NCBI GenBank assembly: GCA_031261445.1
Contig: JAISJQ010000025.1
Span: forward strand, 14,635-78,634
Origin: Oscillospiraceae bacterium
GTDB lineage: Bacteria > Bacillota > Clostridia > Oscillospirales > Acutalibacteraceae
Length of the DNA: 64,000 nt
Direction of reading: 5' to 3'
Shown here: positions 779-63,434 of the stretch, one piece after another
Layout: each line of letters opens with the position of its first letter
How positions within the stretch are numbered: the stretch's first letter is position 1
Notes under the pieces: generated by a model
The model's database searches: none
The model's input: only the letters and a program-made list of their open reading frames with translations
Told to the model about the DNA's origin: nothing
Made by a program: the position numbers and the translations under genes

Positions 779-842
779 TGAGGAGTGAGGGTTGAGGACG
801 GAGGCGTGAGGTTTGTAGGGGCTTTTCTGTGCTCGCCCCTAC
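779..842. repeat. TGAGGNN heptad array (x5) plus palindrome GTAGGGGC-N12-GCCCCTAC
   Basis: Read directly. The 7-nt phase runs tgaggag/tgagggt/tgaggac/ggaggcg/tgaggtt into GTAGGGG. Confidence 0.85.
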
Positions 843-866
843 ACAAATGCATCAACATCATGTGAA

Positions 867-1688
867 CTAAACCACTTGACTCACCGCAATAAACGACGGA
901 TCATACATGACCCGCGCGTTGGCTTGGTCGATGATGGCCGCATCCAGCAGGTTGCCCGTGCGCTTGTCGTTGACGCGGCGCACAACACGGTTGCGGCGAT
1001 AATATTGTCCGTCCACACAAACAAAGTGTGCGTCTTCCTCCACAATGTGCACAGAAAGATCAAGGACCGTTTGGGCGCGCAGTTCCCCACAAAGATGCGT
1101 GTCATTGGTGGAGACGAGCAGCTGAAACGTCTGTTCGCTGTTGTTTTGGACGCGATAATCCAGATAATTATACAAAATCGATGTCCCGCAGCCAAAGGGC
1201 ACTTGTCGCCCAAAATCGGGGAATAGATCCAGGTCGTTGTGGTGATGGCGTTCGATGATGTCCAACGGGCTGTGCAGCACCATCCAGTGAATCAAGTTGC
1301 TCAACTGGCACATGCCGCCGCCCACATCATGGCTTGGAGCGTGCTGCTTGATGGTCAAGCCCTCTTTGTATCCACGTTTTGCGCTGGTATTGCCCACGAG
1401 TCGCCAGAGCGAAAACGTTTCGCCGGGTTGGATGAGAATACCGTTCACAAGGGGCGCGGCGAGCGCGAGATTGTGCGCTTTGTTTTCTTGTAATTGCATA
1501 TCTACGTTGCCCAACTTGCGGCGAATGAGTGATTTGTGCGCATAGATCAGGGTCGGCAAGGGCGCATCTGTTTCGTGCGCAAATTTTGTTCTCGCCCAAA
1601 AATCCTGTGCGTGGCGCACGAGACGTTCTTTTTGTGTGCTCAAATAATAAGTAGCGGGTGAAATTTCGCAAAACAGTTTTCTGGGCAT
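867..1688 (-). CDS. VanW family protein
   Basis: ORF 867..1733. GYKEGL and HDVGGGMCQLSN motifs are typical of the VanW/YoaR domain. Start set to ATG 1688 (MPRKLF) behind AAGGGA. Confidence 0.75.
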   Translation of the reverse strand: MPRKLFCEISPATYYLSTQKERLVRHAQDFWARTKFAHETDAPLPTLIYAHKSLIRRKLGNVDMQLQENKAHNLALAAPLVNGILIQPGETFSLWRLVGNTSAKRGYKEGLTIKQHAPSHDVGGGMCQLSNLIHWMVLHSPLDIIERHHHNDLDLFPDFGRQVPFGCGTSILYNYLDYRVQNNSEQTFQLLVSTNDTHLCGELRAQTVLDLSVHIVEEDAHFVCVDGQYYRRNRVVRRVNDKRTGNLLDAAIIDQANARVMYDPSFIAVSQVV

Positions 1689-1758
1689 GTGTGTTCCCTT
1701 GTTGGCTATATCTTCGCGCAGAGTATAGCACACACCCTAGGAAAATGCAAGCGCGTTG

Positions 1759-1979
1759 CAATGAACAATGAACAAAGAACAATGAACAATTGTTTGCCTG
1801 CTGCTTCAGCCAGTATTAAGATAACAACCTGTTTTGAGGCGTGAGGGATGAGGATACAGGCGTGAGGTCTGTATCCCCGCAACGGGCGGATGATATCCGC
1901 CCCTACCAGCCTCATTTCTGTATCCTCATCCCTCCACAACAATTGTTCATTGTTCATTGTCAATTGTTCATTGTCAATG
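1759..1979. repeat. about 220-bp nested inverted repeat: AATGAAC array / GAGG array / REP-like hairpin / CCTC array / GTTCATT array
   Basis: Arrays at 1760-1794, 1836-1870, 1884-1906, 1907-1935 and 1937-1979. The arms are reverse complements family by family. Confidence 0.9.
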
Positions 1980-1984
1980 CCCGC

Positions 1985-2013
1985 TTGACAAATCTGCCAC
2001 AATGTGCTATACT
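1985..2013 (+). promoter_or_regulatory. sigma-70-type promoter of rimP operon
   Basis: TTGACA (1985-1990), 17-nt spacer, TATACT (2008-2013) with TGn extension. Confidence 0.7.
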
Positions 2014-2089
2014 GTGCGCATCAAGTGTGTAGATTGAGGGAAAGAGTGGGTGTTAGCCCGCTCTTTCTTTTCAAAAAGGAGCTGCGCCC

Positions 2090-2560
2090 ATGCCCAAACC
2101 ACCCGGCAGCATTGCCGATGCCGTACAAACGCTGGCCACGCCCGTGACCGAACAGCTCGGTCTGTCCCTCTGGGATGTGCGCTTCTTTAAGGAGGGCGCG
2201 GACTGGATACTGCTGCTGGTGATCGACAAGGCCGACGCGCCTGTGGACATCAACGACTGCGAGCTCGTCAGCCACGCAATCGATCCCCTGCTCGACGAGA
2301 AGGACTGGATTGACCAGAGCTATCGCCTACAGGTCTCCTCCCCCGGCTTGGAACGCACACTGCGCACCCCCGCGCACTTCGCCGCGTATCTCGACCAGCC
2401 CGTGTTCTTCAAGCTCATTCGCCCCTACGAGGGTACGCGGGAATTCCACGGCACGCTGGCGGACTACGACAACGGCAGCTTCACGGTCGAGCTCCCAGAC
2501 GGTCAGGGCATGACCTGCACACTCAAGGAAGTCTCATTCGTCAAAGCAGATGATTTCTAG
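2090..2560 (+). CDS. rimP: ribosome maturation factor RimP
   Basis: 156 aa with SSPGLERTLR motif. AAGGAG RBS. Lies directly upstream of nusA. Confidence 0.9.
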   Translation: MPKPPGSIADAVQTLATPVTEQLGLSLWDVRFFKEGADWILLLVIDKADAPVDINDCELVSHAIDPLLDEKDWIDQSYRLQVSSPGLERTLRTPAHFAAYLDQPVFFKLIRPYEGTREFHGTLADYDNGSFTVELPDGQGMTCTLKEVSFVKADDF

Positions 2561-2675
2561 CTTTCTAGATGCTAGATTGTAGAGACTAGATTCTGTGTCA
2601 CAGCTGTTTTTCAGTAAGACAAGAAGGTCTAGTCCCTGAAATCTAACATCTAGAATCTAACATCTAACATCTAAA
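2555..2675. repeat. inverted pair of CTAGATN heptad arrays between rimP and nusA
   Basis: TAG recurs every 7 nt over 2558-2593. Reverse-complement array (ATCTAAC) at 2640-2675. Central CTGTG-T-CACAG. Confidence 0.85.
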
Positions 2676-2698
2676 TTTCGGAAGGATGATCGAAAAAT

Positions 2699-3787
2699 AT
2701 GGACACCCAAGAACTCTTTGCCGCACTGCAAATGCTCTCAAAGGAGCGCAGCATCCCCATCGATGCCCTCTACGCCGCGCTGGAGAAGGCCATCATCACC
2801 GCTGTGAAAAAGGACTACAAAGAGCGCGAGGAGCGCGAAGACTTTGTGTTCTGCCACATCAACGGTGAGGACGAGACCATGCGCGTCTACCTGCGCAAAA
2901 ACGTCGTGAGCGAAATTCTGGACGACGCGACGGACATTCTGCCCGAACAAGCGCAGAAATACAAAGAAAACGCCAAGCTGGGCGACATCATTGAGATTGA
3001 CGTGGAGCCGCGCGGACTCTCCCGCGTGGTGGCCGACAAGGTCAAACACGTGTTGCGCTCCGGGTTGCGTGAAGCGGAAAACGGCATCATTCTGGATAAA
3101 TTCGCCCAGATTCTGGGGCAAATCCTCACCGTGCGCGTGGCACGCATTGACCACACAACGGGCGATGCCTTTGTGGAGCTGGGCAAGACGGAGGAAATCC
3201 TCCCCCGCTCCGCCCAACTGCCGGAAGAGAACTTCCGCGAGGGCGACCTCATCAAAATCTACGTGGCGGACGTAAAGAGCCAAGAGCGCGGCAAGCCCCG
3301 CCCGGTGCTCAGCCGCAAAGATCCCGGCCTTGTGCGCCGCCTGTTCGAGCTAGAAGTGCCCGAAATCGGCGACGGCACGGTGATCCTCAAGGACGTGAGC
3401 CGCGAGGCGGGCGTGCGCACGAAAGTGAGCGTCTACAGCGACGACGAGGTCGTCGATCCCGTGGGCGCGTGCATCGGCTCGCGCAGCCAGCGCATTGGCC
3501 GCATCACCGATACGCTCGCGGGCGAGCGCATCGACATCATCCGCTACAGCGAAGATCTGGCGGAATACATCAGCGCGGCGCTCAGCCCCGCCGAAGTCAT
3601 CCGCGTGGAGGTCGATGAGGCCGCCCACGCCACCCGTGTCATCGTGCCGGATAACCAGCTGTCTCTGGCCATTGGCAACAAGGGGCAGAACGTTCGCCTA
3701 GCGGCCAAGCTCACGGGTTGGAAGATCGATCTGGCCAGCGAAACGGACGAAAAAGGCCCGATCATCGACCTGTCGAAAGAACTTTAA
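2699..3787 (+). CDS. nusA: transcription termination/antitermination factor NusA
   Basis: 362 aa with S1 and two KH regions ([34 protein letters not shown]). Confidence 0.95.
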
Positions 3788-3790
3788 TTC

Positions 3791-3814
3791 AGTGAATAAG
3801 TAATAGTGAATAGG
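3791..3814. repeat. AGTGAAT/AAGTAAT heptad array
   Basis: agtgaat/aagtaat/agtgaat/agg, immediately after the nusA stop. Confidence 0.85.
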
Positions 3815-3864
3815 TGTCAGGTCTATAACAGTTACCTTTGCTGATTAAGGAAGGAGTGTGTCCC

Positions 3865-4212
3865 ATGGCGGAGAAGAAGGTTGTCGGGGTGCGCAAAGTG
3901 CCTACGCGGCAGTGCATTGGTTGCCGGGCGCACAAAGAGAAGCGTGCGCTCATCCGCGTGGTGCGCCCCCCGGACGATGCCCCCATCACCTTGGATGCCA
4001 CGGGCAAAAAGAACGGGCGCGGCGCGTACCTCTGCCCAGACGCCGAGTGCCTGAAGAAAGCACGCAAAAAAAACGCGCTCTCCCACGCCTTCAAACAGCG
4101 CGTGCCCGAAGAAGTATACAACCAACTGGAAGAAGAGCTCAGGCATCTAGCGGCGGCCGCTTCCGAAAAAACAGAGACCCGAGAGGAGCTACCGTATGCA
4201 GACAAAATATAA
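3865..4212 (+). CDS. ylxR: YlxR/RnpM family (DUF448) RNA-binding protein
   Basis: ATG 3865 behind AAGGAAGGAG. RKVPTRQCIGCR...GRGAYLC signature. Sits between nusA and infB. Confidence 0.85.
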   Translation: MAEKKVVGVRKVPTRQCIGCRAHKEKRALIRVVRPPDDAPITLDATGKKNGRGAYLCPDAECLKKARKKNALSHAFKQRVPEEVYNQLEEELRHLAAAASEKTETREELPYADKI

Positions 4213-6739
4213 GCTCAGCGACTTAGCCAAGGATTTTGGTGTGAAGAGCAAAGTGATTATGGACTTGCTGGAGAAAGTGTTTGGCGGCAAGCGCAAGGGC
4301 ACGAGCAGCTCACTGGATTCCGACGAGCTGGATGTGGTCATTGAACACCTGACGGTGGAACGCTCAATGCCTGATTTTTCGGCGTATTTTGCGACGAGAA
4401 AGCCGCCCGAGACGCCTGCCGCGCCGGAAGCCGCGCCAGCGGTCAAGCCCACCGCGCCGCCTGCCCCCGTGGCATCGGCGAAGCCCGTGGCCACGCCGCC
4501 GCCTGTCGCGCCCGAAAAACCCGCCGCGCCGGCTAAGCCCGTGGCAACGCCGGCCGCGCCGAGCAAACCCGTGGTGGCCGCTACGCCGCCACCCGTGAAG
4601 CCGACCAAACCCACTGCGCCCCCGCGTCCCGCGCCACCGCCCAAGCCGCGGCCCACAGGTCCACTGCTGGATGCCAAGGGCAACCGCGTTACCATGCCCG
4701 TGCGCAAGGAGAAGCCCGCTGGCTCTGCGCCCCAAAAGCGCACCACGGGCGAGACGCGCACCATCGACACGCGCACGGCGGACGTGACGCTGGAAAAATA
4801 CACCGAACGCTACGATTCGCTGGCCAGCAGCCACGACATGCGCCGCAGCGATACGAGCACCTCCAAGCAGAAGCTCACCAAGCGCAACACGCAAAGCCGC
4901 CGCCCGCAGGGGATGCGCTCGCGCCGCCCGAAAGAGACTGAGCGCGACCGCCTGATGCGTCTGGAGCGCGAGCGCGCCCGCGCCCCCAAACTCCACATCA
5001 AAGTGGGCGAGGAAATCACCGTCACGGAGCTGGCCGAGCGCATGAAGCGCAAGGCCGCCGAGGTCATCAAAAAGCTGTTTGTGGAGATGGGGCAAGTCGT
5101 CACCGCCAACGATACCATTGATTTCGACACCGCCGAGCTCGTTGGCGACGCCATGGGCGTTGTGGTGGAGCGCGAAATTGTGGTGACCATTGAAGAGAAA
5201 ATCATCGACGACTCCACCGACGACGAGGGCAACCTCATCGGGCGTGCGCCCGTGGTCGTCGTCATGGGGCACGTGGACCACGGCAAAACGTCCATTCTCG
5301 ATGCCATCCGCAACACTTCCGTCACCGAGACCGAAAGCGGCGGCATCACCCAGCACATTGGCGCGTATCGCGTGGAGCTGGACGGCCAGCCCATCACGTT
5401 CCTAGATACCCCTGGACACGCCGCGTTTACCTCCATGCGTGCCCGTGGCGCCATGGCGACCGACATCGCCGTACTGGTGGTGGCGGCGGACGACGGCATC
5501 ATGCCGCAGACCATTGAGGCCATCAACCACGCCAAGGCGGCGGGTGTGAAGATCATCGTGGCCATCAACAAGATGGATCGCGAGGGCGCGAACCCCGACC
5601 GCATCAAGCAACAACTCACCGAATACGAGCTGGTCAGCGAGGACTGGGGCGGCGACACCATTTGCGTGCCCGTCTCCGCCGTCACGCGGCAGGGCATCAA
5701 CGACCTGCTACAGGCCATCCTGCTGGTGGCAGAAGTGCTGGAGCTCAAGGCCAATCCCAACCGCGCCGCCAAGGGCATTGTGATTGAGGCGCGTATGGAC
5801 AAAGCGCGTGGCGCGATTGCCACGCTCCTCGTGCAAAACGGCACGCTCCACAGCGGCGACTACGTGGTCGCGGGCGCAACGAGCGGTCGCGTGCGCGTGA
5901 TGACAGACGACAAGGGCAACAAGATCAACACGGCGGGGCCCTCCGTCCCGGTGGAAATCATGGGACTGGACGAAGCGCCGACCGCGGGCGACAGCGTGGA
6001 CTCCGTGAGCGATGAGCGCCTAGCGCGAGCGCTGGTGGAGCAACGCCGTGGGCAGATTAAAGAGATTGAGCAGGGCACGCACGAGAAAGTCAGCCTAGAG
6101 AACCTGTTTGAGAACCTACAGGCCGGGCAAATGAAGACGCTCGGGCTCATCGTCAAAGCGGATGTGCAGGGCTCTGTGGAGGCACTCAAGCAGAATTTGG
6201 AGAAGCTGAGCAACGAGGAAGTGCACGTGAAGATTCTCCACGCTGGCGTGGGGGCAATCAACGACAACGACGTGATGCTGGCCAACACCTCCAACGCGAT
6301 CGTCATCGGTTTCCGCGTGCGCCCAGATGCCTCCGCCCAAGCCAACGCAGAGCGGCAGGGCGTGCAACTGCGCATGTATTCGGTCATCTACCAGTGCATG
6401 GAGGAAGTGGAGGCCGCCCTGAAGGGGATGCTCGCGCCGAAATTCCGCGAGGTGCAGCTCGGACGCATTGAGGTGCGGCAGGTGGTGCACATCTCGGCCA
6501 TCGGCAACGTGGCGGGCTGTCACGTGCTCACGGGCAAGGTGACGCGCGGCGCGAAGATTCGCCTCGTGCGCGACGGCATTGTCATCGTGGAAGACGACAT
6601 TTCCAGCCTCAAGCGCTTTAAGGACGACGTGAAAGAAGTCGCGTCGGGCTACGACTGCGGCATCGCGCTGGAAAAATACAACGACATCAAAGACGGCGAC
6701 ATCTTTGAGGCGTTCATCATCGAAGAATACAGGGACTAA
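4196..6739 (+). CDS. infB: translation initiation factor IF-2
   Basis: 847 aa with [13 protein letters not shown] and NKMD GTPase motifs. Pro/Ala-rich N-terminal region. Confidence 0.97.
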
Positions 6740-6744
6740 CGTTC

Positions 6745-6801
6745 CAATGAACAATTGACAATTGACAATGAACAATTGGTGGGGCGGCAGATTGCCGCCC
6801 C
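6745..6801. repeat. AATGAAC heptad array plus REP-like hairpin GGGGCGGCA-gat-TGCCGCCCC
   Basis: Read directly. Lies after the infB stop. Confidence 0.85.
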
Positions 6802-6817
6802 TTACAGAGGGGTTTCT

Positions 6818-7426
6818 ATGGACAACGTGGCACGCAAGCGAGCGGGCTTGCCCTATTGCTATGACGACCCGGCGTTGATGGGCGACCAGCATGTCTATCA
6901 AGACGTGATGGCACGCTACAACCGCACGTTGCCCACGCAAACCGCCGAACGCCAGCAAATCGCGCGGGAGATGTTCGCAGAGATTGGCGAGGGTTGCACG
7001 GTGGAAACACCCGTCCACGCCAATTGGGGCGGCAAACACGTGCATTTGGGGCGCGGGGTCTATATCAATTCCAACGTGACCTTCGTGGATGACGAGCATA
7101 TCCACATTGGCGACAACTGCCTCATCGCGCCGAACGTGGTGTTCTCCACCTCCGGTCACCCCATTTTGCCCATCCTCCGAGAACATCATTACGTCTATAA
7201 CCTGCCCATTCATGTGGGCGCGAACGTGTGGATTGGCTCGGGCGCACAGATCATGCCCGGTGTCACCATTGGCGAAAACAGCGTGATTGGCGCGGGCAGT
7301 GTGGTCACGCAGGATATCCCCGCGAACGTGGTCGCCTTCGGTGTCCCCTGCCGCGTCCAACGAGAAATCGGCGAACAAGACCGCCAGTTCTACTACAAAA
7401 AACGAAAATTAGACGTTTGGGAATAA
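6818..7426 (+). CDS. maa: sugar (maltose/galactoside-type) O-acetyltransferase, hexapeptide-repeat family
   Basis: LbH repeats (NVWIGSGAQIMPGVTIGENSVIGAGSVV). ATG 6818 (MDNVARK) behind GAGGGG. The ORF-track start at 6755 lies inside a repeat module. Confidence 0.8.
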   Translation: MDNVARKRAGLPYCYDDPALMGDQHVYQDVMARYNRTLPTQTAERQQIAREMFAEIGEGCTVETPVHANWGGKHVHLGRGVYINSNVTFVDDEHIHIGDNCLIAPNVVFSTSGHPILPILREHHYVYNLPIHVGANVWIGSGAQIMPGVTIGENSVIGAGSVVTQDIPANVVAFGVPCRVQREIGEQDRQFYYKKRKLDVWE

Positions 7427-7430
7427 AAAA

Positions 7431-7460
7431 CTATTCACTATTCACTATTCGTTATTCACT
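7431..7460. repeat. CTATTCA heptad array (reverse complement of the AGTGAAT family)
   Basis: ctattca/ctattca/ctattcg/ttattca. Confidence 0.85.
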
Positions 7461-10271: not shown

Positions 10272-10280
10272 GCGACTGTT

Positions 10281-10424
10281 GTAGGGGCGCGCGCCCCTGC
10301 GCGCCCGCTGTCAGAAACATGAAGCCTGTAGGGGCGGCAATCTGCCGCCCGCTGAGTTTGTAGGAAGCAGCGGGCAGATTTTCGGGCGCAATTCTGCCCT
10401 CTGTCTTCTGATTTCTTCCCTCTG
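10281..10424. repeat. two REP-like hairpins, conserved linker, and a CTCTG-type heptad array
   Basis: GTAGGGGCGCGC..GCGCGCCCGC (10281-10308), GTAGGGGCGGCAatcTGCCGCCCGC (10328-10352), GCGCAATTCTGCCCTCTG.. (10385-10424). Confidence 0.85.
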
Positions 10425-10448
10425 AAATGTGATGGAATTTATCGAAAC

Positions 10449-10477
10449 TTGTATTCTTGCGGGATATCTGTTATAAT
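10449..10477 (+). promoter_or_regulatory. promoter of LCP gene
   Basis: TTGTAT, 17-nt spacer, TATAAT (10472-10477) with TGT extension. Confidence 0.55.
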
Positions 10478-10510
10478 ACGCGCGAACAGCAAACGGAGGC
10501 GAGGCATCCA

Positions 10511-12001: not shown

Positions 12002-12090
12002 GCCATCGGTAGATTCTGCCAAACGGCGCATGTATTTTGTCGTGTTTCTCGTCCATGCTAAGGACAAACCAGTAGCAGGAGTGACGAGAA

Positions 12091-12970: not shown

Positions 12971-12982
12971 GCGGCAAAACTC

Positions 12983-13011: not shown

Positions 13012-13045
13012 ATTCGGCGGAACAAAGTTGCGGGAGGGGACGAGC

Positions 13046-51327: not shown

Positions 51328-51348
51328 AGGGTATTGCTCCTTGTTTTT

Positions 51349-51422: not shown

Positions 51423-51426
51423 TGAA

Positions 51427-53256: not shown

Positions 53257-53322
53257 AAAGCTCTCCATTCAATGACGTTCCTTTTTTGCGGGTTTTATTG
53301 TAGCACAAATGTGGGGGAATTG

Positions 53323-53344
53323 CAAACAATTGTTCATTGTTCAA
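53323..53344. repeat. GTTCATT heptads containing the GH gene stop
   Basis: caaacaattgttcattgttcaa. Encodes ..VEQ plus stop on the minus strand. Confidence 0.8.
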
Positions 53345-55823: not shown

Positions 55824-55899
55824 GAAGGAACTCCTCGTGCTTTTTGTTCTGCCGATATTATAGCAGATGAAGGGGAGAAAAACAAGCTAGAGGCGCATT

Positions 55900-55956
55900 G
55901 CAATGAACAATTTACAATGAACAAAGAACAATTGTCCATTGTTCTTTGTTCATTGC
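55900..55956. repeat. near-perfect palindrome made of AATGAAC heptads and their complement
   Basis: gcaatgaacaatttacaatgaacaaagaacaattg t ccattgttctttgttcattgc. Confidence 0.9.
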
Positions 55957-55968
55957 GCGAAGCGCACA

Positions 55969-55997
55969 TTGCGTTTTGCGCACAAAAATGTTATAAT
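55969..55997 (+). promoter_or_regulatory. promoter of gltX
   Basis: TTGCGT, 17-nt spacer, TATAAT (55992-55997). Confidence 0.6.
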
Positions 55998-56110
55998 TTA
56001 GATGCTAGACGTTAGAGACTAGGTTTTGCATCTATACGTCTCTTCATCAAAGAAACAACAGCGTTTTGCGACAGAATCTAGCCTCTAGTCTCTAATATCT
56101 AACATCTAGA
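55998..56110. repeat. inverted TAGA-type heptad arrays forming the gltX leader
   Basis: TTAGAGACTAGG (56012-56023) pairs with CCTCTAGTCTCTAA (56081-56094). Both arms are 7-nt periodic. Confidence 0.8.
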
Positions 56111-56122
56111 ACAGGAGTTTTT

Positions 56123-57760
56123 ATGCCTACCCTCGCCGAAGTGCTCTTCCCGCAGTCCCTGCCCAACCCCGCCGCGCTGGAGGCGCAGTATCCGCCCCGC
56201 AGCCTGCCCGAGGGCGCACGCGTCACGCGCTTTGCCCCCAGTCCCACGGGCTTTTTGCATTTGGGCAGCCTCTACACGGCCTACGTCAATTTTCTCACGG
56301 CGCACAGCACGGGCGGCGTGTTTTTCCTGCGCATTGAGGACACGGACAAAAAGCGTGAGGTGGCCGGCGGCGTGGCATCGCTGTTGGAGAGCCTAGCGGC
56401 GTTTGGCATTGTGCCCGACGAGGGCGGCGTGGCGGGCGGCGCTTATGCCCCCTATACCCAGAGTGCGCGGCGGGAAATTTATCAAGCCTTTGCCAAGGAT
56501 TTAGTCGAGCGCGGCTTGGCGTACCCCTGCTTTTGCACGGAGGACGAACTGACCGCCTTGCGGGATGCCCAAGAGACAGCCGATGTGCCCCAGAAGGGCT
56601 ACTGGGGGCAGTGGGCGCGTTGCCGGGATTTATCTGCACAGGACGCCATCGCCCGTGTACAGGCGGGCGATGCGTGGGTATTGCGCTTGCGTGCGGATGG
56701 CGACGCCGAAAAGCGCATCGTCTTCACGGACGAAGTGCGCGGCAAGATTGAGATGCCTGAGAACATTCTGGACACTGTCTTACTCAAGCGCGACGGCGTG
56801 CCGACCTATCACTTTGCCCACGCGGTGGACGACCACCTCATGCGCACCACCCACGTCATCCGTTCCGAGGAATGGCTCGCCTCCGTGCCGCTCCATCTGG
56901 CGCTCATGCGCGTCTGCGGCTTCCGTGCACCCAAATACGCCCACATTTCCGCGCTCATGAAGAGTGAGGACGGCGCGAAGCGCAAGCTGAGCAAACGCAA
57001 AGACCCTGAAGCGGCGGTCAGCTGGTTCAGTGCGCAGGGCTACCCCGCCGATGCGGTGCTGGAATACCTCATGACCCTCATCAGCTCCGCCTTTGAAGAC
57101 TGGCGGCGCGTCCACCCCACTGAGCCGCGCTCTGCGTTCCCCTTCACGCTCAAAAAAATGAGTGCCTCTGGCGCACTGTTCGATGCCGTTAAACTGGCCG
57201 ACGTGAGCAAGGGTGTCATCGCGCTCGTCAGCGGTGCGGATTTGGCACAGCAGGTGCGGCACTGGGCGGGGGCGCACGACACCGCTTTGGCTGCGCTATT
57301 GGACAAGCACCCCGATCGTCTTGCGCAAATTCTGGCGATCGATCGCGACGGCGCAAAGAAGCCACGCAAAGACATCGCCCGTTACGGCGAAGTGCTCGGC
57401 TATGTGTCCTACTTTTTTGACGAACTGTTCGTCCCCGCGCTGCCGCTGCCTGAGGGCATCAGCCCCGCCGATGCATCGGAGATTTTGGGTGCATACGACT
57501 ACGATGCCGACGAAGACAAGGACGCGTGGTTTGCGCGTATCCGCGCGTTGGCGCTCTCGTTGGGCTACGCCGCCAGCCCCAAGGAATACAAAGACAACCC
57601 CGCCCAGTGGCGCGGTCACGTGGGCGCGGTCTCTTCTGTGATTCGCGCCGCCATCACGGGGCGCAGTAACACGCCGGATCTATGGGCGATTTGCCGCGTC
57701 TTGGGCGCAACTACGGTGCTCTCGCGCCTCCAGAAGGCGCTGGTGTCGCTGAACACTTAG
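56123..57760 (+). CDS. gltX: glutamate--tRNA ligase
   Basis: RFAPSPTGFLHLG (HIGH-type) and KLSKRK (KMSKS-type) motifs. 545 aa. Confidence 0.85.
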   Translation: MPTLAEVLFPQSLPNPAALEAQYPPRSLPEGARVTRFAPSPTGFLHLGSLYTAYVNFLTAHSTGGVFFLRIEDTDKKREVAGGVASLLESLAAFGIVPDEGGVAGGAYAPYTQSARREIYQAFAKDLVERGLAYPCFCTEDELTALRDAQETADVPQKGYWGQWARCRDLSAQDAIARVQAGDAWVLRLRADGDAEKRIVFTDEVRGKIEMPENILDTVLLKRDGVPTYHFAHAVDDHLMRTTHVIRSEEWLASVPLHLALMRVCGFRAPKYAHISALMKSEDGAKRKLSKRKDPEAAVSWFSAQGYPADAVLEYLMTLISSAFEDWRRVHPTEPRSAFPFTLKKMSASGALFDAVKLADVSKGVIALVSGADLAQQVRHWAGAHDTALAALLDKHPDRLAQILAIDRDGAKKPRKDIARYGEVLGYVSYFFDELFVPALPLPEGISPADASEILGAYDYDADEDKDAWFARIRALALSLGYAASPKEYKDNPAQWRGHVGAVSSVIRAAITGRSNTPDLWAICRVLGATTVLSRLQKALVSLNT

Positions 57761-60384
57761 TCCGCACAGCTACGGGCACTTTGCGCCGCATCAAACAGCG
57801 TTTGCATCGCTTCAAAGGGCGTTAGGGTGTTCACGTCCAGCCGCGCCAGTTGCCGCAGCAGGGCGCTCTGTGCCTCACGCGCGAAGGATATCTGGGTGTC
57901 GTCCGTGGGTAGGGGCACGTCATGACGTGCCCCTACGTTGGCGTCGCGTTCCAGCTGCGCCAGCACCACCCGCGCCCGCTTGACCACGCTCTCGGGCACG
58001 CCGGCCAGCTTTGCCGCCTCAATGCCGTAAGAGTCGTCCGCACCGCCGGGGACAATCTTGCGCAGAAAGGTCAGCTCGTCGCCGCGTTTTTTCACGGCAA
58101 TGTTGTAGTTCTTGACACCCGCAATGCTGTCCTCTAAATCTGTCAGCTCGTGATAGTGCGTGGCGAAGAGGGTCTTTGCGCCCAGTTTTTTCTTGTCCGC
58201 GCAGTGTTCAAGGACGGCCCTAGCGATGGACATGCCGTCGTAAGTGGACGTGCCGCGCCCGATTTCGTCTAGGATAAGTAAGCTACCCGGTGTCGCCGCA
58301 GAAAGAATCGCAGCCACCTCGCTCATCTCCACCAAAAAGGTGGATTGCCCCGCACTCAAATCGTCGCTCGCACCAATGCGGGTGTAAATGCCGTCGAGCA
58401 CCGTGAGCCGCGCACTGCTGGCCGGAACAAAACTGCCCGCCTGCGCTAAAAGACAAATGAGCGCGACTTGGCGCATGTAGGTGCTCTTGCCGGCCATGTT
58501 GGGACCGGTGAGTATCATGCAGCGGCACTCGTCCGTGTTGAGGTCCGTGTCGTTGGGGACGAAGGGAGCCGCGCCCTGCATCCGCTCCACAACGGGGTGT
58601 CGCCCGCCCACGATGTGTAGCACGCCGTCCGTGCACATGTCCGGGCGGACGTAGTTGGCCTGCGCCGCCGTCTGCGCAAGGGCGCATAGGGCGTCCAGCT
58701 CCGCCAGCGCACGCGCCGTTTTTTGTACGCGTGCCACCTGCGCCGCCGTCTTTGTCCGCACGCGCTCAAAGAGCTCAAACTCAATGCGCGTGATGCGCTC
58801 CTGTGCGCCGAGCACCTTGCTCTCGAGCTCTTTGAGCTCCTGCGTGATGTAGCGTTCCTTGTCCGTGAGGGTCTGCTTGCGGATGTAGTGCTCCGGCACG
58901 AGCGTTTTTTGGCTGTTGGGGACTTCCAGATAGTAGCCGTAGACACGATTGTAGCCGATCTTCAGCTTGCGGATGCCCGTCTTCTCCGCCTCTTTTTGGG
59001 CGATGCCCGCTAAGTAGCCCTTGCTGTCAGCAATCAGTGCGCGTAGCTCATCGAGCTCCTTGTGGAAGCCGTCGCGGATCATGCCGCCCTCGCGCGTGCT
59101 GGCGGGGGGCTCGTCGCTGATGGCACGCTCGACCAGTGCGCTCACGTCCTCTAAGGGGTCAAGGGACTCAAACAATTCCGCCAGCAGCGTGCTCTTGCAG
59201 ACGATGAGCGTGTCCAAAATCTTGGGCACAACCGCCGCCGTCACCGCCAGAGCACGCAGCGTCTGCGCGTTGGCCGAAGCGTACACAATGCGCGTGATGA
59301 GCCGCTCCATGTCCTGCATACTCGCCAGCAACAGTAGCAAGTCCTCCCGCACAGCCGCGGCGTTCACCAGCTCCTCCACCGCGCTGTGGCGGCGCGTGAT
59401 TGTGCCGATGTTCAGTAGCGGTTTTTCCAGCCAGCTGCGCAGTGTGCGCTTGCCCATGGCCGTGCGGCAACAGTCCATCACCCAGAGCAGCGAGCCACGC
59501 TTTTCCCGCGAGCGCAAGGTCTCTGTGAGCTCCAGATTGCGCAGTGTCGCGGCGTCTAGCCGCATGAAGGCCGACTCGCCATAGAACTCCAGCGTGCGCA
59601 TGTGCCCCAGCTCGCCCCGCTGTGTCTCCGCCAAATAGCGCAGACATGCCCCCGCCGCGCGGATGCTCTCCTGCGCCGCCAATAGGGGTTCGAGTGCCTC
59701 CTGGCCAAAGTGCCCTTCCAGTGCGCTTTGGGTGATGATGGGGTCAAAATAGCTCTCGGGCAACGCCTGTAGCATGGTCTGCAGGCGCGTGTTGGCAAAA
59801 CTGCGCAGTGCCGTGTCGGCGGCGGCCGCCTCGTTGAGCAGTAGCTCGGAGGGGTTGATGCGTGCCAGCTCCGCGCGAATGCTCTCGCCCAGATGTGCGC
59901 CCTGCAGCAGGCAGCAGGAAAACGCCCCCGTGGAGACATCCGCAAAGCAGAGCCCCGCGCGGTCGTCAAAGCGTGCGAGCACGGCCAAAAAGTTGTTGCG
60001 CCCATCGTCGAGCATCGAGCCCTCAATCACCGTGCCGGGCGTGAGGATGCGCGTCACCTCGCGCCTGACTAAGCCCTTGGCTTGCGCGGGGTCTTCCATC
60101 TGTTCACAGACGGCGACCTTGAAGCCCTGCTTGATGAGCCGCGCAAGGTAGGTCTCGATGGCGTGGTGGGGGACGCCGCACATGGCGGCGCGTTCGGGCA
60201 GGCCGCAGTCCCGCGCCGTGAGGGTCAGCCCCAGCGCACGAGAGACGGTCACCGCATCGTCAAAGAACATCTCATAAAAATCGCCCAGACGCCAGAACAA
60301 AACGGCGTCCGGGTTTTGCGCTTTGGCCTCCAAATACTGGCGCATCATAGGCGTGATGCTGGCGGGGATATTCTCGTAGATCAT
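57757..60384 (-). CDS. mutS: DNA mismatch repair protein MutS
   Basis: TPMMRQYLE N-terminus, TGPNMAGKSTYMRQ and LDEIGRGTSTYDG motifs. Confidence 0.97.
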   Translation of the reverse strand: MIYENIPASITPMMRQYLEAKAQNPDAVLFWRLGDFYEMFFDDAVTVSRALGLTLTARDCGLPERAAMCGVPHHAIETYLARLIKQGFKVAVCEQMEDPAQAKGLVRREVTRILTPGTVIEGSMLDDGRNNFLAVLARFDDRAGLCFADVSTGAFSCCLLQGAHLGESIRAELARINPSELLLNEAAAADTALRSFANTRLQTMLQALPESYFDPIITQSALEGHFGQEALEPLLAAQESIRAAGACLRYLAETQRGELGHMRTLEFYGESAFMRLDAATLRNLELTETLRSREKRGSLLWVMDCCRTAMGKRTLRSWLEKPLLNIGTITRRHSAVEELVNAAAVREDLLLLLASMQDMERLITRIVYASANAQTLRALAVTAAVVPKILDTLIVCKSTLLAELFESLDPLEDVSALVERAISDEPPASTREGGMIRDGFHKELDELRALIADSKGYLAGIAQKEAEKTGIRKLKIGYNRVYGYYLEVPNSQKTLVPEHYIRKQTLTDKERYITQELKELESKVLGAQERITRIEFELFERVRTKTAAQVARVQKTARALAELDALCALAQTAAQANYVRPDMCTDGVLHIVGGRHPVVERMQGAAPFVPNDTDLNTDECRCMILTGPNMAGKSTYMRQVALICLLAQAGSFVPASSARLTVLDGIYTRIGASDDLSAGQSTFLVEMSEVAAILSAATPGSLLILDEIGRGTSTYDGMSIARAVLEHCADKKKLGAKTLFATHYHELTDLEDSIAGVKNYNIAVKKRGDELTFLRKIVPGGADDSYGIEAAKLAGVPESVVKRARVVLAQLERDANVGARHDVPLPTDDTQISFAREAQSALLRQLARLDVNTLTPFEAMQTLFDAAQSARSCAD

Positions 60385-60585
60385 TGCTAGATCCTAATTT
60401 AGGTAATAAGTAATAGTGAATAGTGAATAGGTCATTTCAATGAACAATTTACAATGAAAAATTGTTGCAGGAATCAGCGGGCGGCAGGTTGCCGCCCCTA
60501 CAGGCCTCATGCCTGTATCCTGAATCCTCATTCCTCAATAGCCCATACAAACAATTGTTCATTGTTCATTGTTCATTGTTAATTG
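60385..60585. repeat. five-module spacer: TAGA, AGTGAAT, AATGAAC arrays / REP-like hairpin / CCTCA and GTTCATT arrays
   Basis: 60385-60400, 60401-60433, 60436-60468, 60477-60501, 60502-60539 and 60548-60585. Confidence 0.9.
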
Positions 60586-60995
60586 CACTGCCCGCAGTCG
60601 CTGCCGCATTCTGGGCCGCAACTGTGTTCTTCTTGGGGTTCGGCGGTGGCGGGGTCTTCGCCGTCGGCAGAGAGGGACAGAATGCCAAAGATGCGGTGCA
60701 TCAGCTTGGCCAAGCCCTTTTGTTGCTCCTGAAACGCCACCATGGTCGGGCGTGCCATCGCTAGGCTGTACAGGCGCTCAAACTCGTCTTGGTAAGCCTT
60801 GAGCTTGCTCTCGTTGGGCTTGTCCTCGTGTTGCTCTTGGTGAAAGCCGTATTCGCTCATCTGCATCCGTTGCATCAAGCCAACGAGCTCTTCATCGGCG
60901 GCGTTTTTCTCCATGGCGGCCTGCACGGCGGCGAATTCGTCTGTCTGCTGAATCAGTGCACCCAGCTCGCGGGTTTTTGCGATCAAATCTGACAT
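60579..60995 (-). CDS. ylbF: YlbF/YmcA-family regulator with Cys-rich C-terminus
   Basis: 138 aa. ELGALIQQTDEFAAVQAAMEKNAADEEL.. helical YlbF-like core. C-terminal CGPECGSDCGQC. Confidence 0.65.
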   Translation of the reverse strand: MSDLIAKTRELGALIQQTDEFAAVQAAMEKNAADEELVGLMQRMQMSEYGFHQEQHEDKPNESKLKAYQDEFERLYSLAMARPTMVAFQEQQKGLAKLMHRIFGILSLSADGEDPATAEPQEEHSCGPECGSDCGQCN

Positions 60996-61054: not shown

Positions 61055-61098
61055 GACTAGATGCAAGATTTTTTGCACCGTTGCCTGTAGGGACAGGG

Positions 61099-61129
61099 CA
61101 AAAGGAAAACCGCCCGTTGGTCAGGCGGC
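61099..61129 (-). terminator. intrinsic terminator of the TA/DUF2442 operon (the hairpin includes the stop codon)
   Basis: Minus strand: CCGCC-TGACCAACG-GGCGG followed by TTTTCCTTTTG. Confidence 0.6.
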
Positions 61130-61378
61130 TTCTTGGACGGGCTGGCTGTATTCATATAGCGTATTTGGACAAAAGTCCTGCCCTGTTGGCCAGTAGATAT
61201 CGCCGTTCTCGACATACACCAGTTCAAACAGCTTTGCTTCTGACAGAGCCGCATAGAAAGGGTGTGATAGATGCTGTGAAAAGTCGTACTCGCGCACATT
61301 GCCGTCGCTGTAGACGAGCTGCAAACGATAGTCACAAATCGGCGTTGCGCTGAGCAGTTTGGGGTATTCCTTTATCAC
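61121..61378 (-). CDS. DUF2442 domain protein
   Basis: 85 aa, ..YRLQLVYSDGNVREYDF.. pattern. The ATG overlaps the upstream stop (ATGA). Confidence 0.65.
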   Translation of the reverse strand: MIKEYPKLLSATPICDYRLQLVYSDGNVREYDFSQHLSHPFYAALSEAKLFELVYVENGDIYWPTGQDFCPNTLYEYSQPVQEAA

Positions 61379-61584
61379 GCAAGACCCAGTTCTTTCATTG
61401 CCTCGTCAAACGACAGACATTCGCCGTTGCGGTAGTCTTCCATCGCTTGCTCGTGCGCTCGGTCGTCCTCTGGAGAGGCGACATCATCGGGCAACAGATT
61501 TTCCACAAGCGCAAGGACAAGCTCTTGTTGACCAACGGGTAACAAGTCAAAATACTCGTTGAGCATCTGTGTTCTAGGTGCCAT
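61375..61584 (-). CDS. putative antitoxin (RelB/DinJ-like C-terminus)
   Basis: Start MAPRTQ at 61584 behind GGAGG. 69 aa, acidic, with a ..SFDEAMKELGLA tail. Starts 1 nt after the toxin stop. Confidence 0.5.
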   Translation of the reverse strand: MAPRTQMLNEYFDLLPVGQQELVLALVENLLPDDVASPEDDRAHEQAMEDYRNGECLSFDEAMKELGLA

Positions 61585-61585
61585 A

Positions 61586-61831
61586 TCAAAAACCTCCTTG
61601 GTAAATTCCACCACGTGCACCAAATCGTTCAATGACTATCGTATGCTCGTCTAGTTGATAATATACTACACGCCAATCACCTACGCGCAAGCGGAATTTT
61701 TCATTGTACCCTTTGATTGGTCTAACGTCACCGTCTGGCAGCTTGGCAATTGCGTCCATGACACGTTTTCGTGTCGAAATGCTTTGGCGCGACAATTCTT
61801 TGATCACTCGCTTGGATAACTCGAACTCCAA
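61586..61831 (-). CDS. RelE/ParE-family toxin
   Basis: 81 aa, ..IKGYNEKFRLRVGDWRVVYYQLDEHTIVIERFGARGGIY. TTG start downstream of a TTGACA-17-TAGAAT promoter. Confidence 0.75.
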   Translation of the reverse strand: MEFELSKRVIKELSRQSISTRKRVMDAIAKLPDGDVRPIKGYNEKFRLRVGDWRVVYYQLDEHTIVIERFGARGGIYQGGF

Positions 61832-61870
61832 AAACTCACCCCGCCCACAGATACTTCTAACATAGATCTA

Positions 61871-61899
61871 ATTCTAACACTTTTCGTGTACCATGTCAA
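61871..61899 (-). promoter_or_regulatory. promoter of relE-antitoxin-DUF2442 operon
   Basis: On the minus strand: TTGACA, 17-nt spacer, TAGAAT. Confidence 0.6.
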
Positions 61900-61920
61900 G
61901 TCTCGGCAAGAAATCAGCAC

Positions 61921-61943
61921 AACAATTGTACATTGTCAATTGA
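61921..61943. repeat. GTTCATT-type heptads abutting the obg stop
   Basis: aacaattgtacattgtcaattga. Confidence 0.7.
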
Positions 61944-61944
61944 A

Positions 61945-63207
61945 TTACGGTATGTACTCAAACACCAGCCCGGCCACGCAGACTGTGTCGCCTTCTTGCA
62001 GGCCTGCGGCGAAGAGCTCGTCCATCACGCCGCTGGTCTGTAGCACGCGCTGAAAGTATTGCAGGGACTCAAAGTCGTCCATGTCCACCCGCGCGAGCAC
62101 CCGCGCCAGCCATTCGGCCTCCACGTAGTATTCGCCGTCCTCCACCGTCACGGTGAACTGTCCGGCTCTTTCTTCTTTGAGCGGCAACGGTTCGGGCGCG
62201 TAGATCTTCACGGGCGGGAGCGTGGCCAACAGCGCGGCCGTGGCCTGCATGAGCTCTTTTGTGCCCATGCCGATGGGGGCGCAGATTTCGTAGAACGGCA
62301 GCGTTTGCGCCGTGCAATAGTCCTGCACGCGCTGTAGCTGCTCCTGCGTGGCGCAGTCGATTTTGTTCAGCGCGACAATCTGCGGCAACCGCGCCAGTTC
62401 CGGCTGAAAGGCCGCCAGCTCCGCATTGATTTTCTCAAAGTCCTCCAGCGGGTCGCGTCCCTCTGTCCCCGCCGCATCGAGCACGTGGATGAGCATACGA
62501 CAACGCTCCACGTGGCGCAGGAACGCGTGCCCCAGCCCCGTGCCGTCGCTCGCGCCCTCAATCAAGCCGGGAATATCCGCCATCACAAAGCTTGTGCCCT
62601 CGGCAATGCGCACCACACCCAACACGGGCGAGAGCGTGGTGAAGTGGTAATCGGCCACCACGGGCTTGGCCTGACTGACCGTGGCCAGCAGCGAGCTCTT
62701 GCCCACGTTGGGGAAGCCCAGCAGCCCCACATCGGCCAGCAACTTCAGCTCCAGCGTGATTTCCCAGCTCTCGCCTTGTGCGCCGGATTTGGCAAAGCGC
62801 GGCGCTTGCCGCACGGCAGAGGCAAAGTGGGTGTTGCCCCAACCGCCCCGTCCGCCGCGGGCGATGACCACCGGCTCGCCGTCGGACATGTCCGCCATCA
62901 CCGCGCCGCTCTCGGCCTCGCGCACCAGCGTCCCCACGGGCACGCGGATGATGAGATCGTCCGCCGATCGACCCGATCGCCGCCCCGCTTCGCCCGGCTT
63001 GCCGCTGTCGGCCTTGTAGGCGCGTCTGTAACGGAAATCCGCCAGCGTGGACAGGTTGGAATCGGTTTGGAGCACTATGTTGCCGCCTTTGCCGCCGTCG
63101 CCGCCGTCTGGACCGCCAGAGGCCACGTATTTCTCGCGGTGAAAGCTAACTTTGCCGTCGCCGCCCGCGCCAGCCGTCACGCGAATTTTCGCTGTATCCA
63201 CAAACAT
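61945..63207 (-). CDS. obgE: GTPase ObgE/CgtA
   Basis: MFVDTAKIRVTAGAGGDGKVSFHREKY N-terminus, GFPNVGKSSLL motif, and a C-terminal OCT domain. Confidence 0.96.
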   Translation of the reverse strand: MFVDTAKIRVTAGAGGDGKVSFHREKYVASGGPDGGDGGKGGNIVLQTDSNLSTLADFRYRRAYKADSGKPGEAGRRSGRSADDLIIRVPVGTLVREAESGAVMADMSDGEPVVIARGGRGGWGNTHFASAVRQAPRFAKSGAQGESWEITLELKLLADVGLLGFPNVGKSSLLATVSQAKPVVADYHFTTLSPVLGVVRIAEGTSFVMADIPGLIEGASDGTGLGHAFLRHVERCRMLIHVLDAAGTEGRDPLEDFEKINAELAAFQPELARLPQIVALNKIDCATQEQLQRVQDYCTAQTLPFYEICAPIGMGTKELMQATAALLATLPPVKIYAPEPLPLKEERAGQFTVTVEDGEYYVEAEWLARVLARVDMDDFESLQYFQRVLQTSGVMDELFAAGLQEGDTVCVAGLVFEYIP

Positions 63208-63273
63208 AAAAAGCCCTCATGCCTTCGTCAATCTACTAGAAGCCGCTTGTCTGGGACAAACGGCCTGTATACT

Positions 63274-63302
63274 ATTGTAACCGATTTACAGATATTTTGC
63301 AA
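63274..63302 (-). promoter_or_regulatory. promoter of obg
   Basis: On the minus strand: TTGCAA, 17-nt spacer, TACAAT. Confidence 0.55.
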
Positions 63303-63338
63303 TACTAGATGCCAGATTTTGAAATTAGACGTTTGTGG

Positions 63339-63434
63339 GTAGGGGCGGATAGCATCCGCCCGTGGTCTAGCAGAGGACAGAAATCAGAAGACAGAGGGCA
63401 GATTTGCGCCTTCTGCCCTCTGACATCTGATCTC
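63339..63434. repeat. GTAG hairpin plus inverted CAGARRN / CTCTG heptad arrays reaching the htrA stop
   Basis: GTAGGGGCGGATagcATCCGCCCG (63339-63362), cagagga/cagaaat/cagaaga/cagaggg/caga (63371-63402), ttctgccctctgacatctgatctc (63411-63434). Confidence 0.85.

Follow-up and report, generated by a model that had tools for sequence, protein, structure and literature searches.

The DNA analysed here, hereafter the window, is a 64-kb stretch of a metagenome-assembled genome (MAG) of an Oscillospiraceae bacterium (contig JAISJQ010000025.1), with a G+C content of about 60%. Its NusA was identical to an NCBI protein assigned to an Oscillospiraceae MAG. At its start lies the operon rimP-nusA-ylxR-infB-(acetyltransferase)-rbfA-nrnA, and after curation of the gene set with Pfam the window was 9.8% non-coding (6253 nt), with about 57,700 nt of coding sequence. 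The spacers between the genes carry arrays of tandem heptanucleotides in five sequence families, about 53 modules in all, which are the subject of this study. They were present in 28 of the 37 spacers of at least 30 nt, and every type of spacer was occupied. An earlier examination of the letters alone (the sequence-only reading) had listed about 28 loci, had described the arrays as building most of the spacers and had overlooked that they are paired in inverted orientation. Most spacers do contain arrays; measured in bases, the modules made up only 26% of the non-coding DNA, or 39% when the companion GC-rich hairpins, similar to repetitive extragenic palindromic (REP) sequences, were added. 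Because of the high G+C content, the window also holds long shadow open reading frames (ORFs), two of which were rejected as false. The minus-strand ORF at 10439-12112 (557 aa) lies opposite a real LytR_cpsA_psr gene (10457-12001), and that at 36327-37769 (480 aa) lies opposite aroQ and ispD (36441-37569).

The 7-nt period was strict and confined to the spacers. Scanning for self-matches over periods 1-15 (windows of 21 nt, identity of 80% or more) gave 15 arrays at period 7, four at period 14 and one at period 9, and the remaining periods had none. Strict period-7 signal covered 674 of the 6253 non-coding nucleotides (10.8%) as against 31 of the coding ones (0.05%). Periods 5, 8, 10 and 11 gave zero signal in either kind of DNA, and signal at periods 6, 9 and 12 was restricted to coding DNA. 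We refer to the purine-rich orientation as forward and mark reverse complements with a prime. The forward units are CAATGAA (or AATGAAC; family A), NNTGAGG (B), CTAGATN (C), AGTGAAT/AAGTAAT (D) and CAGARRN (E). Relative to dinucleotide shuffles of the window, pattern scans recovered 20 matches for A (0.00 expected), 22 for B (0.07), 12 for C (0.00) and 19 for E (0.04). The arrays were short (2-7 units) and degenerate, and their overlap with genes was limited to the last codons, 93 nt in total. On these points the sequence-only reading proved accurate: the period, the intergenic placement and the contact at last codons all held, and each array that it had listed was recovered with its unit by Tandem Repeats Finder (TRF), reading of the spacers and pattern scans, with TRF adding further loci. 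Its exclusion of CRISPR was also sound, as the units are contiguous and 7 nt long, whereas CRISPR repeats are 24-48 nt long and separated by unique spacers of similar length.

That the arrays arose through assembly or binning is a possibility to which we attach practically no weight. Logan contigs do break at the repeats, and one of them (L127) begins within an A′ arm at 1947. Nevertheless, contig L126 (10,179 bp, run SRR14710919) matched the window from 47758 to 57936 at 100% identity and L127 matched 1947-5536 with one mismatch, arrays included in both cases. A second assembler thus reproduced 13.8 kb with nine arrays and a single mismatch overall, and the same families were found in related MAGs from other samples.

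The arrays were not free-standing. They occurred as inverted pairs, in which the reverse complement of each forward arm lies downstream of it, and the pairs were nested around GC-rich hairpins with a 5′ GTAG head (e.g. GTAGGGGCGGATATCATCCGCCCGC). The nesting order D > A > B > GTAG-headed REP hairpin > E > conserved loop recurred at about ten loci and was never violated, a mosaic of the type known as bacterial interspersed mosaic elements (BIME). The largest composite, at 1754-1979, consisted of A (1754-1794), B (1831-1870), a REP-like hairpin (1872-1908), B′ (1910-1934) and A′ (1937-1979); its predicted fold reached -118 kcal/mol over 236 nt (z -13.7). Long hairpins were predicted for the composites on both strands, with z from -3 to -14 against mononucleotide shuffles, and a lone D arm had no predicted fold (z = 0). 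Nor were the five families unrelated, as they had been called, since A, B and D share RRTGARN, and folding predicts that the D arm at 60400 is paired with an A′ arm.

The window contained 39 GTAGGG/CCCTAC sites, of which about 30 were spacer copies with a hairpin. These hairpins are extragenic GC-rich imperfect palindromes of 20-40 nt with a 5′ GTAG and many copies, which places them with REP sequences. Inverted doublets, which form a longer hairpin as in REP and REPIN elements, were found at 42651/42751, 40419/40535, 23134/23239 and 31463/31583. The view that the arrays do not show REP behaviour therefore needs correction, as REP-like GTAG-headed hairpins form part of the elements. A perfect GTAG-headed palindrome, GGGTAGGGGCACGTCATGACGTGCCCCTAC, was located at 57906-57937 inside mutS (57757-60384, -), 3′ of the part coding for MutS domain V. 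This was the only hairpin copy noticed within a gene, and contig L126 ends there.

Copies of a module resembled one another in detail. Eleven B copies aligned to ATTGAGGnATGAGGnnTGAGGATACAGGCATGAGGCnTGTAGGGGCGG, with the odd unit ATACAGG at an identical place and a direct run into the REP head; their 3′ part always read ...TGAGGATACAGGCRTGAGGCnTGTAGGGGCGG. The GTAGGGG of the hairpin continues the phase of the array, as had been noticed, apart from a register shift of 1 nt. An invariant ACAATTG stood at the inner end of all fourteen A arms, several of which had the variant unit CAAAGAA in common, and three E elements shared the loop TTTTCGGGYGCGCAAT. Filled A palindromes carried CAATTGTT in both arms, while the single unfilled one (55898-55960) had one CAATTG centre. 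The doubled CAATTGTT would resemble a duplication of the centre upon insertion, a resemblance that is only a hint. Because the copies keep the order of their variant units and their ends, they behave as dispersed repeat modules and not as independent microsatellites. This bears on the alternative that the arrays are neutral microsatellites grown in place, by local slippage and with arms produced by local template switching, having neither mobility nor function. Independent growth would not be expected to repeat unit order, ends, loop and nesting at a dozen loci; about five families account for nearly all the arrays, and short, degenerate arrays of 2-7 units do not look actively expanding.

The composites followed the common order and differed in the modules that they included. 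At 776-845, 3′ of a vanW-like gene, a B arm of five TGAGGNN units (776-815) runs into a palindromic GTAG-headed hairpin (815-845). The element at 10279-10424 has GTAG-headed hairpins at 10279-10310 and 10326-10355, an E remnant, the conserved loop TTTTCGGGCGCAAT and E′ at 10389-10424. A short A arm, a REP-like hairpin (21021-21049) and A′ (21050-21077) make up 20983-21077, and the neighbouring 21668-21787 joins A (21668-21694) and a GTAG hairpin (21695-21717) to a B′ arm (21738-21787) that overlaps the mgsA stop codon. At 27056-27157, A (27056-27097) and A′ (27124-27157) enclose a REP-like hairpin (27101-27123). The arms of 27475-27692 lie about 150 nt apart, a B-like arm at 27475-27505 and a B′ arm at 27658-27692, the latter 2 nt away from the stop codon of gene 27695-28651 (-). 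A REP doublet (31461-31476/31566-31590) surrounds a REP′ hairpin (31497-31521) and B′ (31522-31557) at 31461-31590. A REPIN-like doublet occupies 40417-40543, with REP at 40417-40445, an E remnant, the loop TTTTCGGGTGCGCAAT, E′ at 40471-40508 and REP′ at 40516-40543.

Two longer composites had strongly negative z-scores. The one at 42568-42801 (z -8.2) is composed of REP (42568-42596), B (42603-42650), REP (42649-42678), an E remnant, the conserved loop, E′ (42707-42730) and two REP′ copies (42731-42757 and 42770-42801). That at 47577-47786 (z -11.2) begins with a D arm (47577-47594) including the TAG stop of the upstream gene, followed by B (47595-47610), REP (47609-47637), B′ (47661-47680) and a GTAG hairpin with 43-nt arms (47680-47786). 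In 60400-60590 the order is D (60400-60433), A (60435-60466), REP′ (60476-60503), B′ (60505-60540) and A′ (60549-60590), the last of which overlaps the stop of a ylbF-like gene. At 63303-63433, two C units (63303-63330) precede REP (63337-63365), E (63369-63405), the loop and an E′ arm flush with a stop codon (63408-63433). Simple pairs were also found, among them an E/E′ hairpin at 51348-51422, identified by TRF, folding and pattern scan and reproduced in L126.

The modules stood in a fixed relation to gene ends. In 19 of the 51 genes a module overlapped the stop codon or lay within 12 nt of it, and 18 of these 19 modules were in forward orientation on the sense strand (binomial p = 8e-5). 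Half of the 18 overlap the end of the ORF, a class biased by construction because forward units contain stop codons; the nine modules lying wholly 3′ of the stop codon were nevertheless all forward. The lone D arm (3789-3815, +, TRF) begins 1 nt after the nusA stop, and an A arm (6742-6779, +) begins 2 nt after the infB stop and leads into the GC hairpin GGGGCGGCAGATTGCCGCCCC, the whole element spanning 6742-6802. An A′ arm at 61918-61944 (-) is flush with the obg stop, another at 28681-28720 lies at the stop of a P-type ATPase gene, and a B/B′ hairpin (35353-35428) takes up all of the DNA between two convergent genes, both of its arms being flush with a stop codon. The sole reverse-oriented arm at a stop codon was D′ at 7427-7459 (-), which is the entire acetyltransferase-rbfA spacer. 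That acetyltransferase, a maltose-type hexapeptide protein encoded at 6817-7426 (+), separates infB from rbfA. The two genes are adjacent in the relatives L001 and L003, and a GNAT acetyltransferase occupies the spot in L444. With the A arm and hairpin on one side of the insert and D′ on the other, the repeats mark a hot spot of gene insertion.

Some stop codons are themselves array units. These comprised the TAG stops of rimP, of ispD and of an aminotransferase gene (50065-50067), and the TGA stops of the genes ending at 21059, 21766 and 53334. The first two of these TGA codons lie in the A′ arm 21050-21077 (gene 21059-21622, -) and at mgsA, and the third is provided by a short A′ arm at 53327-53343 (-) for the gene 53334-55823 (-). 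The E array 37549-37579, which contains the ispD TAG, is followed by GTAG hairpins at 37613-37642 and 37668-37695, the whole element covering 37549-37695. TGA, TAG or TAA is present in every A-D unit, so that all three frames are closed by three units, and these stop codons explain why forward arms coincide with ORF ends. As a design rule, a stop-codon code was rejected: in 82 non-A arrays of other genomes 77% of units contained a stop on one strand or both, compared with 76% after composition shuffling.

At start codons the orientation was the opposite one, and all eight genes with a module 0-21 nt 5′ of the start had it in reverse orientation. The C/C′ cassettes reach exactly from stop codon to Shine-Dalgarno sequence in two spacers. 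One hairpin (2558-2677) fills the rimP-nusA spacer, its first C unit being the rimP TAG and its C′ arm ending 21 nt 5′ of the nusA start. The other (49999-50067, reproduced in L126) is the full 69-nt spacer behind the aminotransferase gene, whose TAG is its first C unit, and the next start codon lies 3 nt beyond the end of its other arm. A further C/C′ hairpin (55996-56112) lies, as read by eye, in the 5′ leader of a tRNA-synthetase gene at 56123, with C′ ending 10 nt from the start. A C array at 36124-36163 (+; TRF and pattern scan) is C′ on the minus strand, 11 nt 5′ of a response-regulator start, and at 28664-28720 (-) a short pair of C units lies by the Shine-Dalgarno sequence of the gene 27695-28651 (-).

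These contacts, together with the stable predicted hairpins, are what speaks for the elements as functional post-transcriptional cis-elements, that is, hairpins at mRNA boundaries or between cistrons that would act as 3′-end stabilisers, as processing sites or as modulators of downstream translation. We consider this possible, if unlikely. A reader of the 7-nt register might be an RNA-binding protein, for example of the cold-shock-domain, S1 or HutP-like type; the cold-shock protein CspB binds heptanucleotides, and HutP binds UAG triplets spaced by 4 nt. The C unit corresponds to UAGNNNN, but whereas HutP/TRAP-type sites are NAG triplets evenly spaced in a leader RNA and bound by a protein encoded nearby, the C copies are dispersed over the window and paired into stems. 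Against a role in RNA, some composites would lie in untranscribed DNA by our reading of the sequence: the one between the divergent -35 boxes at 1748-1983 (element 1754-1979), and 31461-31590, which would lie beyond a separate adjoining hairpin at 31592-31635 that was read by eye as an intrinsic terminator. The terminator scan did not list this perfect 17-bp hairpin, so that the call is by eye. No Rfam match was obtained at the gathering threshold, and no clear compensatory changes between arms were seen by eye in the alignment of A arms.

Promoters gave rise to another alternative, in which the elements work as DNA, whether as AT-rich upstream promoter elements, as insulators or as cruciforms that depend on supercoiling. 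The composite 1754-1979 lies between divergent promoters and ends 6 nt before the rimP -35 box at 1985. This promoter was confirmed by scan (TTGACA-17-TATACT with an upstream TG, 1985-2013, 11 of 12 matches). A′ arms, which are 71% A+T in a genome of 60% G+C, end 6-15 nt 5′ of five -35 boxes called by eye, and owing to the fixed polarity both promoters of a divergent pair see the same arm orientation. The composite 23099-23246 likewise lies between divergent promoter-like sites (by eye); it comprises B (23099-23134), REP (23135-23156), E (23160-23187), a loop, E′ (23197-23212) and REP′ (23216-23246). Two C units (CTAGATGCAAGATTTT, 61057-61075, +) stand 5′ of a promoter-like site, also by eye. 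We nonetheless judge action at the DNA level to be very unlikely. Most modules are at gene 3′ ends or between cistrons and not 5′ of promoters, relatives exist that lack the elements, and in the promoter scan of the window the rimP promoter was the only call confirmed. Extended -10 boxes (TGnTATACT) were seen by eye 5-12 nt 5′ of start codons at 20929-20945, 21623-21640 and 27008-27035, and such close spacing suggests leaderless mRNAs or mRNAs with very short leaders.

The same operon was compared in relatives of the host, with NusA identities of 79% (L001), 77% (L003 and L444), 73% (L005 and L006), 61% (L442) and 58% (L443). L003 carried a C/C′ cassette in its nusA-ylxR spacer, in which the first unit is the nusA TAG and the cassette runs from stop codon to Shine-Dalgarno sequence as in the window, along with an A′ arm at a stop codon and a C′-like arm 5′ of a start codon. 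L005 and L006 had CCTGAAW arrays in the nusA-ylxR spacer and a C/C′ hairpin elsewhere. In L444 there was one REP hairpin only, its GTAG being the rimP stop; no elements were found in 21 kb of L001, nor at the orthologous operon of the more distant gut relatives L442 and L443. L005 and L006, which have an identical NusA protein (P0008), were treated as one species; in this only same-species pair a 43-nt block was present in two copies in one assembly and three in the other, which is not a 7-nt step. The sequences of the families thus recur across species, their locations differ and their presence is patchy. Judged from these comparisons, patchy presence is a signature that would fit expanding repeat families and not indispensable signals, and it suggests an expansion that is specific to the lineage and probably selfish. 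For a cis-element function, the L003 cassette counts in favour, whereas the element-poor operons of L001, L444, L442 and L443 and the occurrence of different families in the same spacer across species count against it.

No gene for a REP-associated tyrosine transposase (RAYT) was found in the 64-kb window by tblastn, or in the other fetched loci apart from a near-threshold case in L005. The L005 gene scored 76.7 bits to NF047646, below the cut-off of 80. Its product (1194-1880) has four tandem GDAHxGVPxTxI peptides between conserved blocks, an insert that looks like a translated GC-rich repeat, and L006, in other respects collinear, lacks the gene.

Beyond the lineage, an exact 18-mer of the A′ array matched at least 119 genome loci in about a dozen phyla. 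Among the matches listed, the hosts included Cyanobacteria, Bacteroidota, Chloroflexota, Planctomycetota, Gemmatimonadota and Gammaproteobacteria, as well as Lachnospiraceae, Ruminococcus and other Oscillospiraceae MAGs. Within the same set of matches, many loci held true multi-unit arrays with period 7 dominant, some of them long, variable arrays of the A unit in other phyla, and palindromes with the polarity seen in the window, (CAATGAA)n-loop-(TTCATTG)n, occurred in Chloroflexota, Planctomycetota, Gemmatimonas and Bacteroidota. The purine-rich arm came first in 17 of 19 heptamer-armed palindromes listed, including 4 of 4 non-A ones, so that the polarity rule, a further point for a cis-element function, extends to other phyla. 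For ORFs of at least 150 aa, arrays beginning 0-10 nt past the stop were forward A in 15 cases and reverse in 4, and overlaps with ORF ends were forward in 43 and reverse in 1, again among the matches listed and with the latter class biased by construction. At a Chloroflexi locus (L048), A-like units were chained into GTGAGGC units, the A-then-B order of the window. Hairpins of the form GTAGGGGCG were likewise seen in several of the 18-mer loci. A metagenome scan with a 16-mer of the B-REP junction yielded, among the inspected matches, chance hits without B or REP context, and the A heptamer, used as a search word, brought up nothing relevant in the literature.

In viral contigs, composition-matched control heptamers occurred at 12 and 45 loci compared with 18 for A, and TAACTGA at no fewer than 120. 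The wide occurrence of A was therefore ruled out as proof of transfer or function; it is mainly a sign of how common heptamer arrays are, and the A unit is not demonstrably special. The control frequencies, and the long, variable A-unit arrays in other phyla among the matches listed, would agree with microsatellites grown in place. So would the abundance of heptanucleotide units, which in most prokaryotic genomes are described as outnumbering other long simple repeats, perhaps as a result of polymerase slippage (Mrazek 2007, as cited in PMC4679880). Set beside the conserved anatomy of the copies, this explanation appears improbable to us.

Several known repeat systems offer comparisons. Intergenic heptamer repeats are reportedly known since 1990, when Mazel is said to have described the short tandemly repeated repetitive (STRR) sequences of heterocystous cyanobacteria. 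The arrays in the window agree with heptanucleotide tandem repeats in the broad sense, STRR or LSSR (long simple sequence repeats), insofar as they have tandem 7-nt units repeated head to tail beyond chance, several families (here five) per genome, an intergenic location and degeneration by point substitution. STRR in the strict sense they are not, as the host is not a heterocystous cyanobacterium and the units differ from CCCCAGT, TTGGTCA and CAACAGT. They also differ from STRR/LSSR in the host, an Oscillospiraceae MAG of about 60% G+C, in their length of 2-7 units, in the order of variant units shared by copies, and in being systematically paired in inverted orientation and joined to REP-like hairpins.

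Beggiatoaceae, Cyanobacteria and Bacteroidetes have TAACTGA repeats, which stand among other heptamers and are absent from close relatives, and translational regulation has been proposed for those 5′ of start codons (MacGregor 2015, PMC4679880), a proposal that also lends some support to a cis-element role here. Like the window arrays, they are spacer repeats with 2-6 copies of a stop-containing heptamer, in many cases only a few nucleotides away from a start codon; they too have other heptamers among them, are patchy among relatives and are missing from related strains with shorter, repeat-free spacers. In a Beggiatoaceae genome, however, 169 of 170 TAACTGA sets were direct repeats and one was inverted (PMC4679880), while inverted pairs are the rule in the window. 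The window also has five families as against one, with the forward arm at stop codons and the reverse arm at start codons.

Other comparisons concern the palindromes. A mosaic build is a feature of BIME, and a GTAG head one of REP sequences. With REP, BIME and REPIN elements the hairpins share GC-rich imperfect palindromes, the 5′ GTAG head, extragenic location, high copy number and inverted doublets, and with BIME in particular a fixed-order mosaic of hairpins and other conserved motifs; REPIN elements provide a model for REP inverted doublets (PMC3116915). The accessory motifs of the window are unlike theirs in being 7-periodic inside and forming outer stems, and a RAYT gene, part of REP/RAYT systems, is missing from the 64-kb window, with the near-threshold RAYT-like gene present only in a relative's contig. 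The small dispersed repeats (SDR) of Nostoc, reportedly described by Elhai in 2008, are said to be likewise very small hairpin repeats nested in other repeats of genomes rich in heptamer arrays; their sequences and host differ. Miniature inverted-repeat transposable elements (MITEs; Correia/NEMIS, ERIC, RUP) are short, palindromic, intergenic and hairpin-forming, and may supply stop codons or affect neighbouring genes, as the elements here do or may do. The window arms could be MITE-like terminal inverted repeats. Unlike in MITEs, no autonomous partner or insertion sequence was found, the arms are tandem heptamers, and the doubled CAATTGTT is the sole hint of a target duplication. The elements are thus heptanucleotide STRR/LSSR arrays combined with a REP/BIME-like mosaic, known kinds in a new host. 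The proposal of an undescribed class holds for the host and the architectural rules, whereas STRR, LSSR and TAACTGA heptamer arrays had been described before.

Taking together the anatomy, hairpin potential, dispersed-repeat behaviour, orientation rules and patchy distribution observed above, we favour, with about even confidence, the interpretation that a lineage-specific family of intergenic repeats, mosaic and made of nested palindromes, has the arrays as its building blocks. Each heptamer family is a defined module of about 20-45 nt, 7-periodic inside, whose periodicity may have arisen by replication slippage. The degenerate arrays would then have been copied across the genome as whole modules, probably as single-stranded hairpin DNA together with the REP hairpins, with a RAYT-type tyrosine transposase and/or template switching as the putative movers. 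Copies would survive only where they are tolerated, from a stop codon to the next promoter or Shine-Dalgarno sequence, and a deletion bias that strips the remaining spacer would leave modules flush against genes. Any effect on genes would be secondary: transcribed pairs would form stable hairpins, with a possible role in shielding the 3′ ends of mRNAs or in keeping cistrons apart, and a stop-rich arm would terminate any reading frame running into it.

Several observations weigh against this interpretation. Neither a RAYT nor another transposase was found in the window or the fetched loci, save the sub-cut-off L005 gene, and filled and empty alleles of one site were not seen, so that mobility of the modules is only inferred. 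The purine-first polarity of the 17 of 19 pairs from unrelated genomes (among the matches listed) and the precise integration of C arms with stop codons and Shine-Dalgarno sequences would be explained more easily by function than by tolerance. The family consensus is kept between species whose NusA proteins are only 73-77% identical, which needs either continuing transposition or a conserved reading factor. The model leaves the period of 7 unexplained, as it does the rule that the purine-rich arm comes first even between divergent promoters. A broader interpretation, in which heptamer-armed palindromes form a distinct cross-phylum class of cis-elements and are not debris, would relate their purine-first polarity and their position flush with stop codons and Shine-Dalgarno sequences either to a conserved nucleic-acid-binding protein that reads them in a 7-nt register or to footprints of REP/RAYT machinery, and we regard it as rather doubtful.

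Some features of the window concern the genes themselves. At 1-200, a G/T-rich stretch contains 12- and 24-nt tandem repeats (GGTGTGGTCGGC), apparently within the coding part of a minus-strand gene that extends beyond the window edge. The region 12218-14347 (+) encodes recO and, directly after it, a 454-aa DnaA homologue with DnaA_N, Bac_DnaA and Bac_DnaA_C domains, in a context unlike the usual dnaA-dnaN origin and with no obvious DnaA-box cluster by eye. Its neighbour at 14354-17029 (-) looks like a gene of a TOTE conflict system; in the encoded protein (891 aa) a ResIII/DEAD helicase comes after an AEP-TOTE primase domain (PF22548, E = 4.5e-98). A 243-nt tandem repeat of about 4.5 copies (73-74% matches) at 31875-32972, within a Big_2 gene (31648-34431, -), encodes repeated bacterial Ig-like domains. 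Third-position G+C was 0.49 in a leucine-rich-repeat gene (8879-9688, +) and 0.53 in an ORF without a Pfam match (34603-35352, +), compared with about 0.8 in their neighbours, and both genes are probably recent acquisitions, judging by composition. In the 950-nt region that separates ylbF and obg, two overlapping 85-aa ORFs (61121-61632, -), one with DUF2442, are laid out like a toxin-antitoxin pair.

What is new here is the host, an Oscillospiraceae bacterium with modules in more than two-thirds of its spacers in the window, the fusion of heptamer arrays to REP-like hairpins, the placement of the purine-rich arm almost always first, and the contact of forward arms with stop codons in nearly all module-bearing gene ends. 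In practical terms, such elements break assemblies, supply stop codons and mislead ORF callers, as with the two long false ORFs of the window, and they mark sites of gene insertion. The explicit rules of pairing, polarity, nesting, joining to REP hairpins and contact with stops and starts provide testable hypotheses on transposase footprints, hairpin RNA boundaries and slippage. If the footprint option were true, the origin of STRR-type repeats would be explained.

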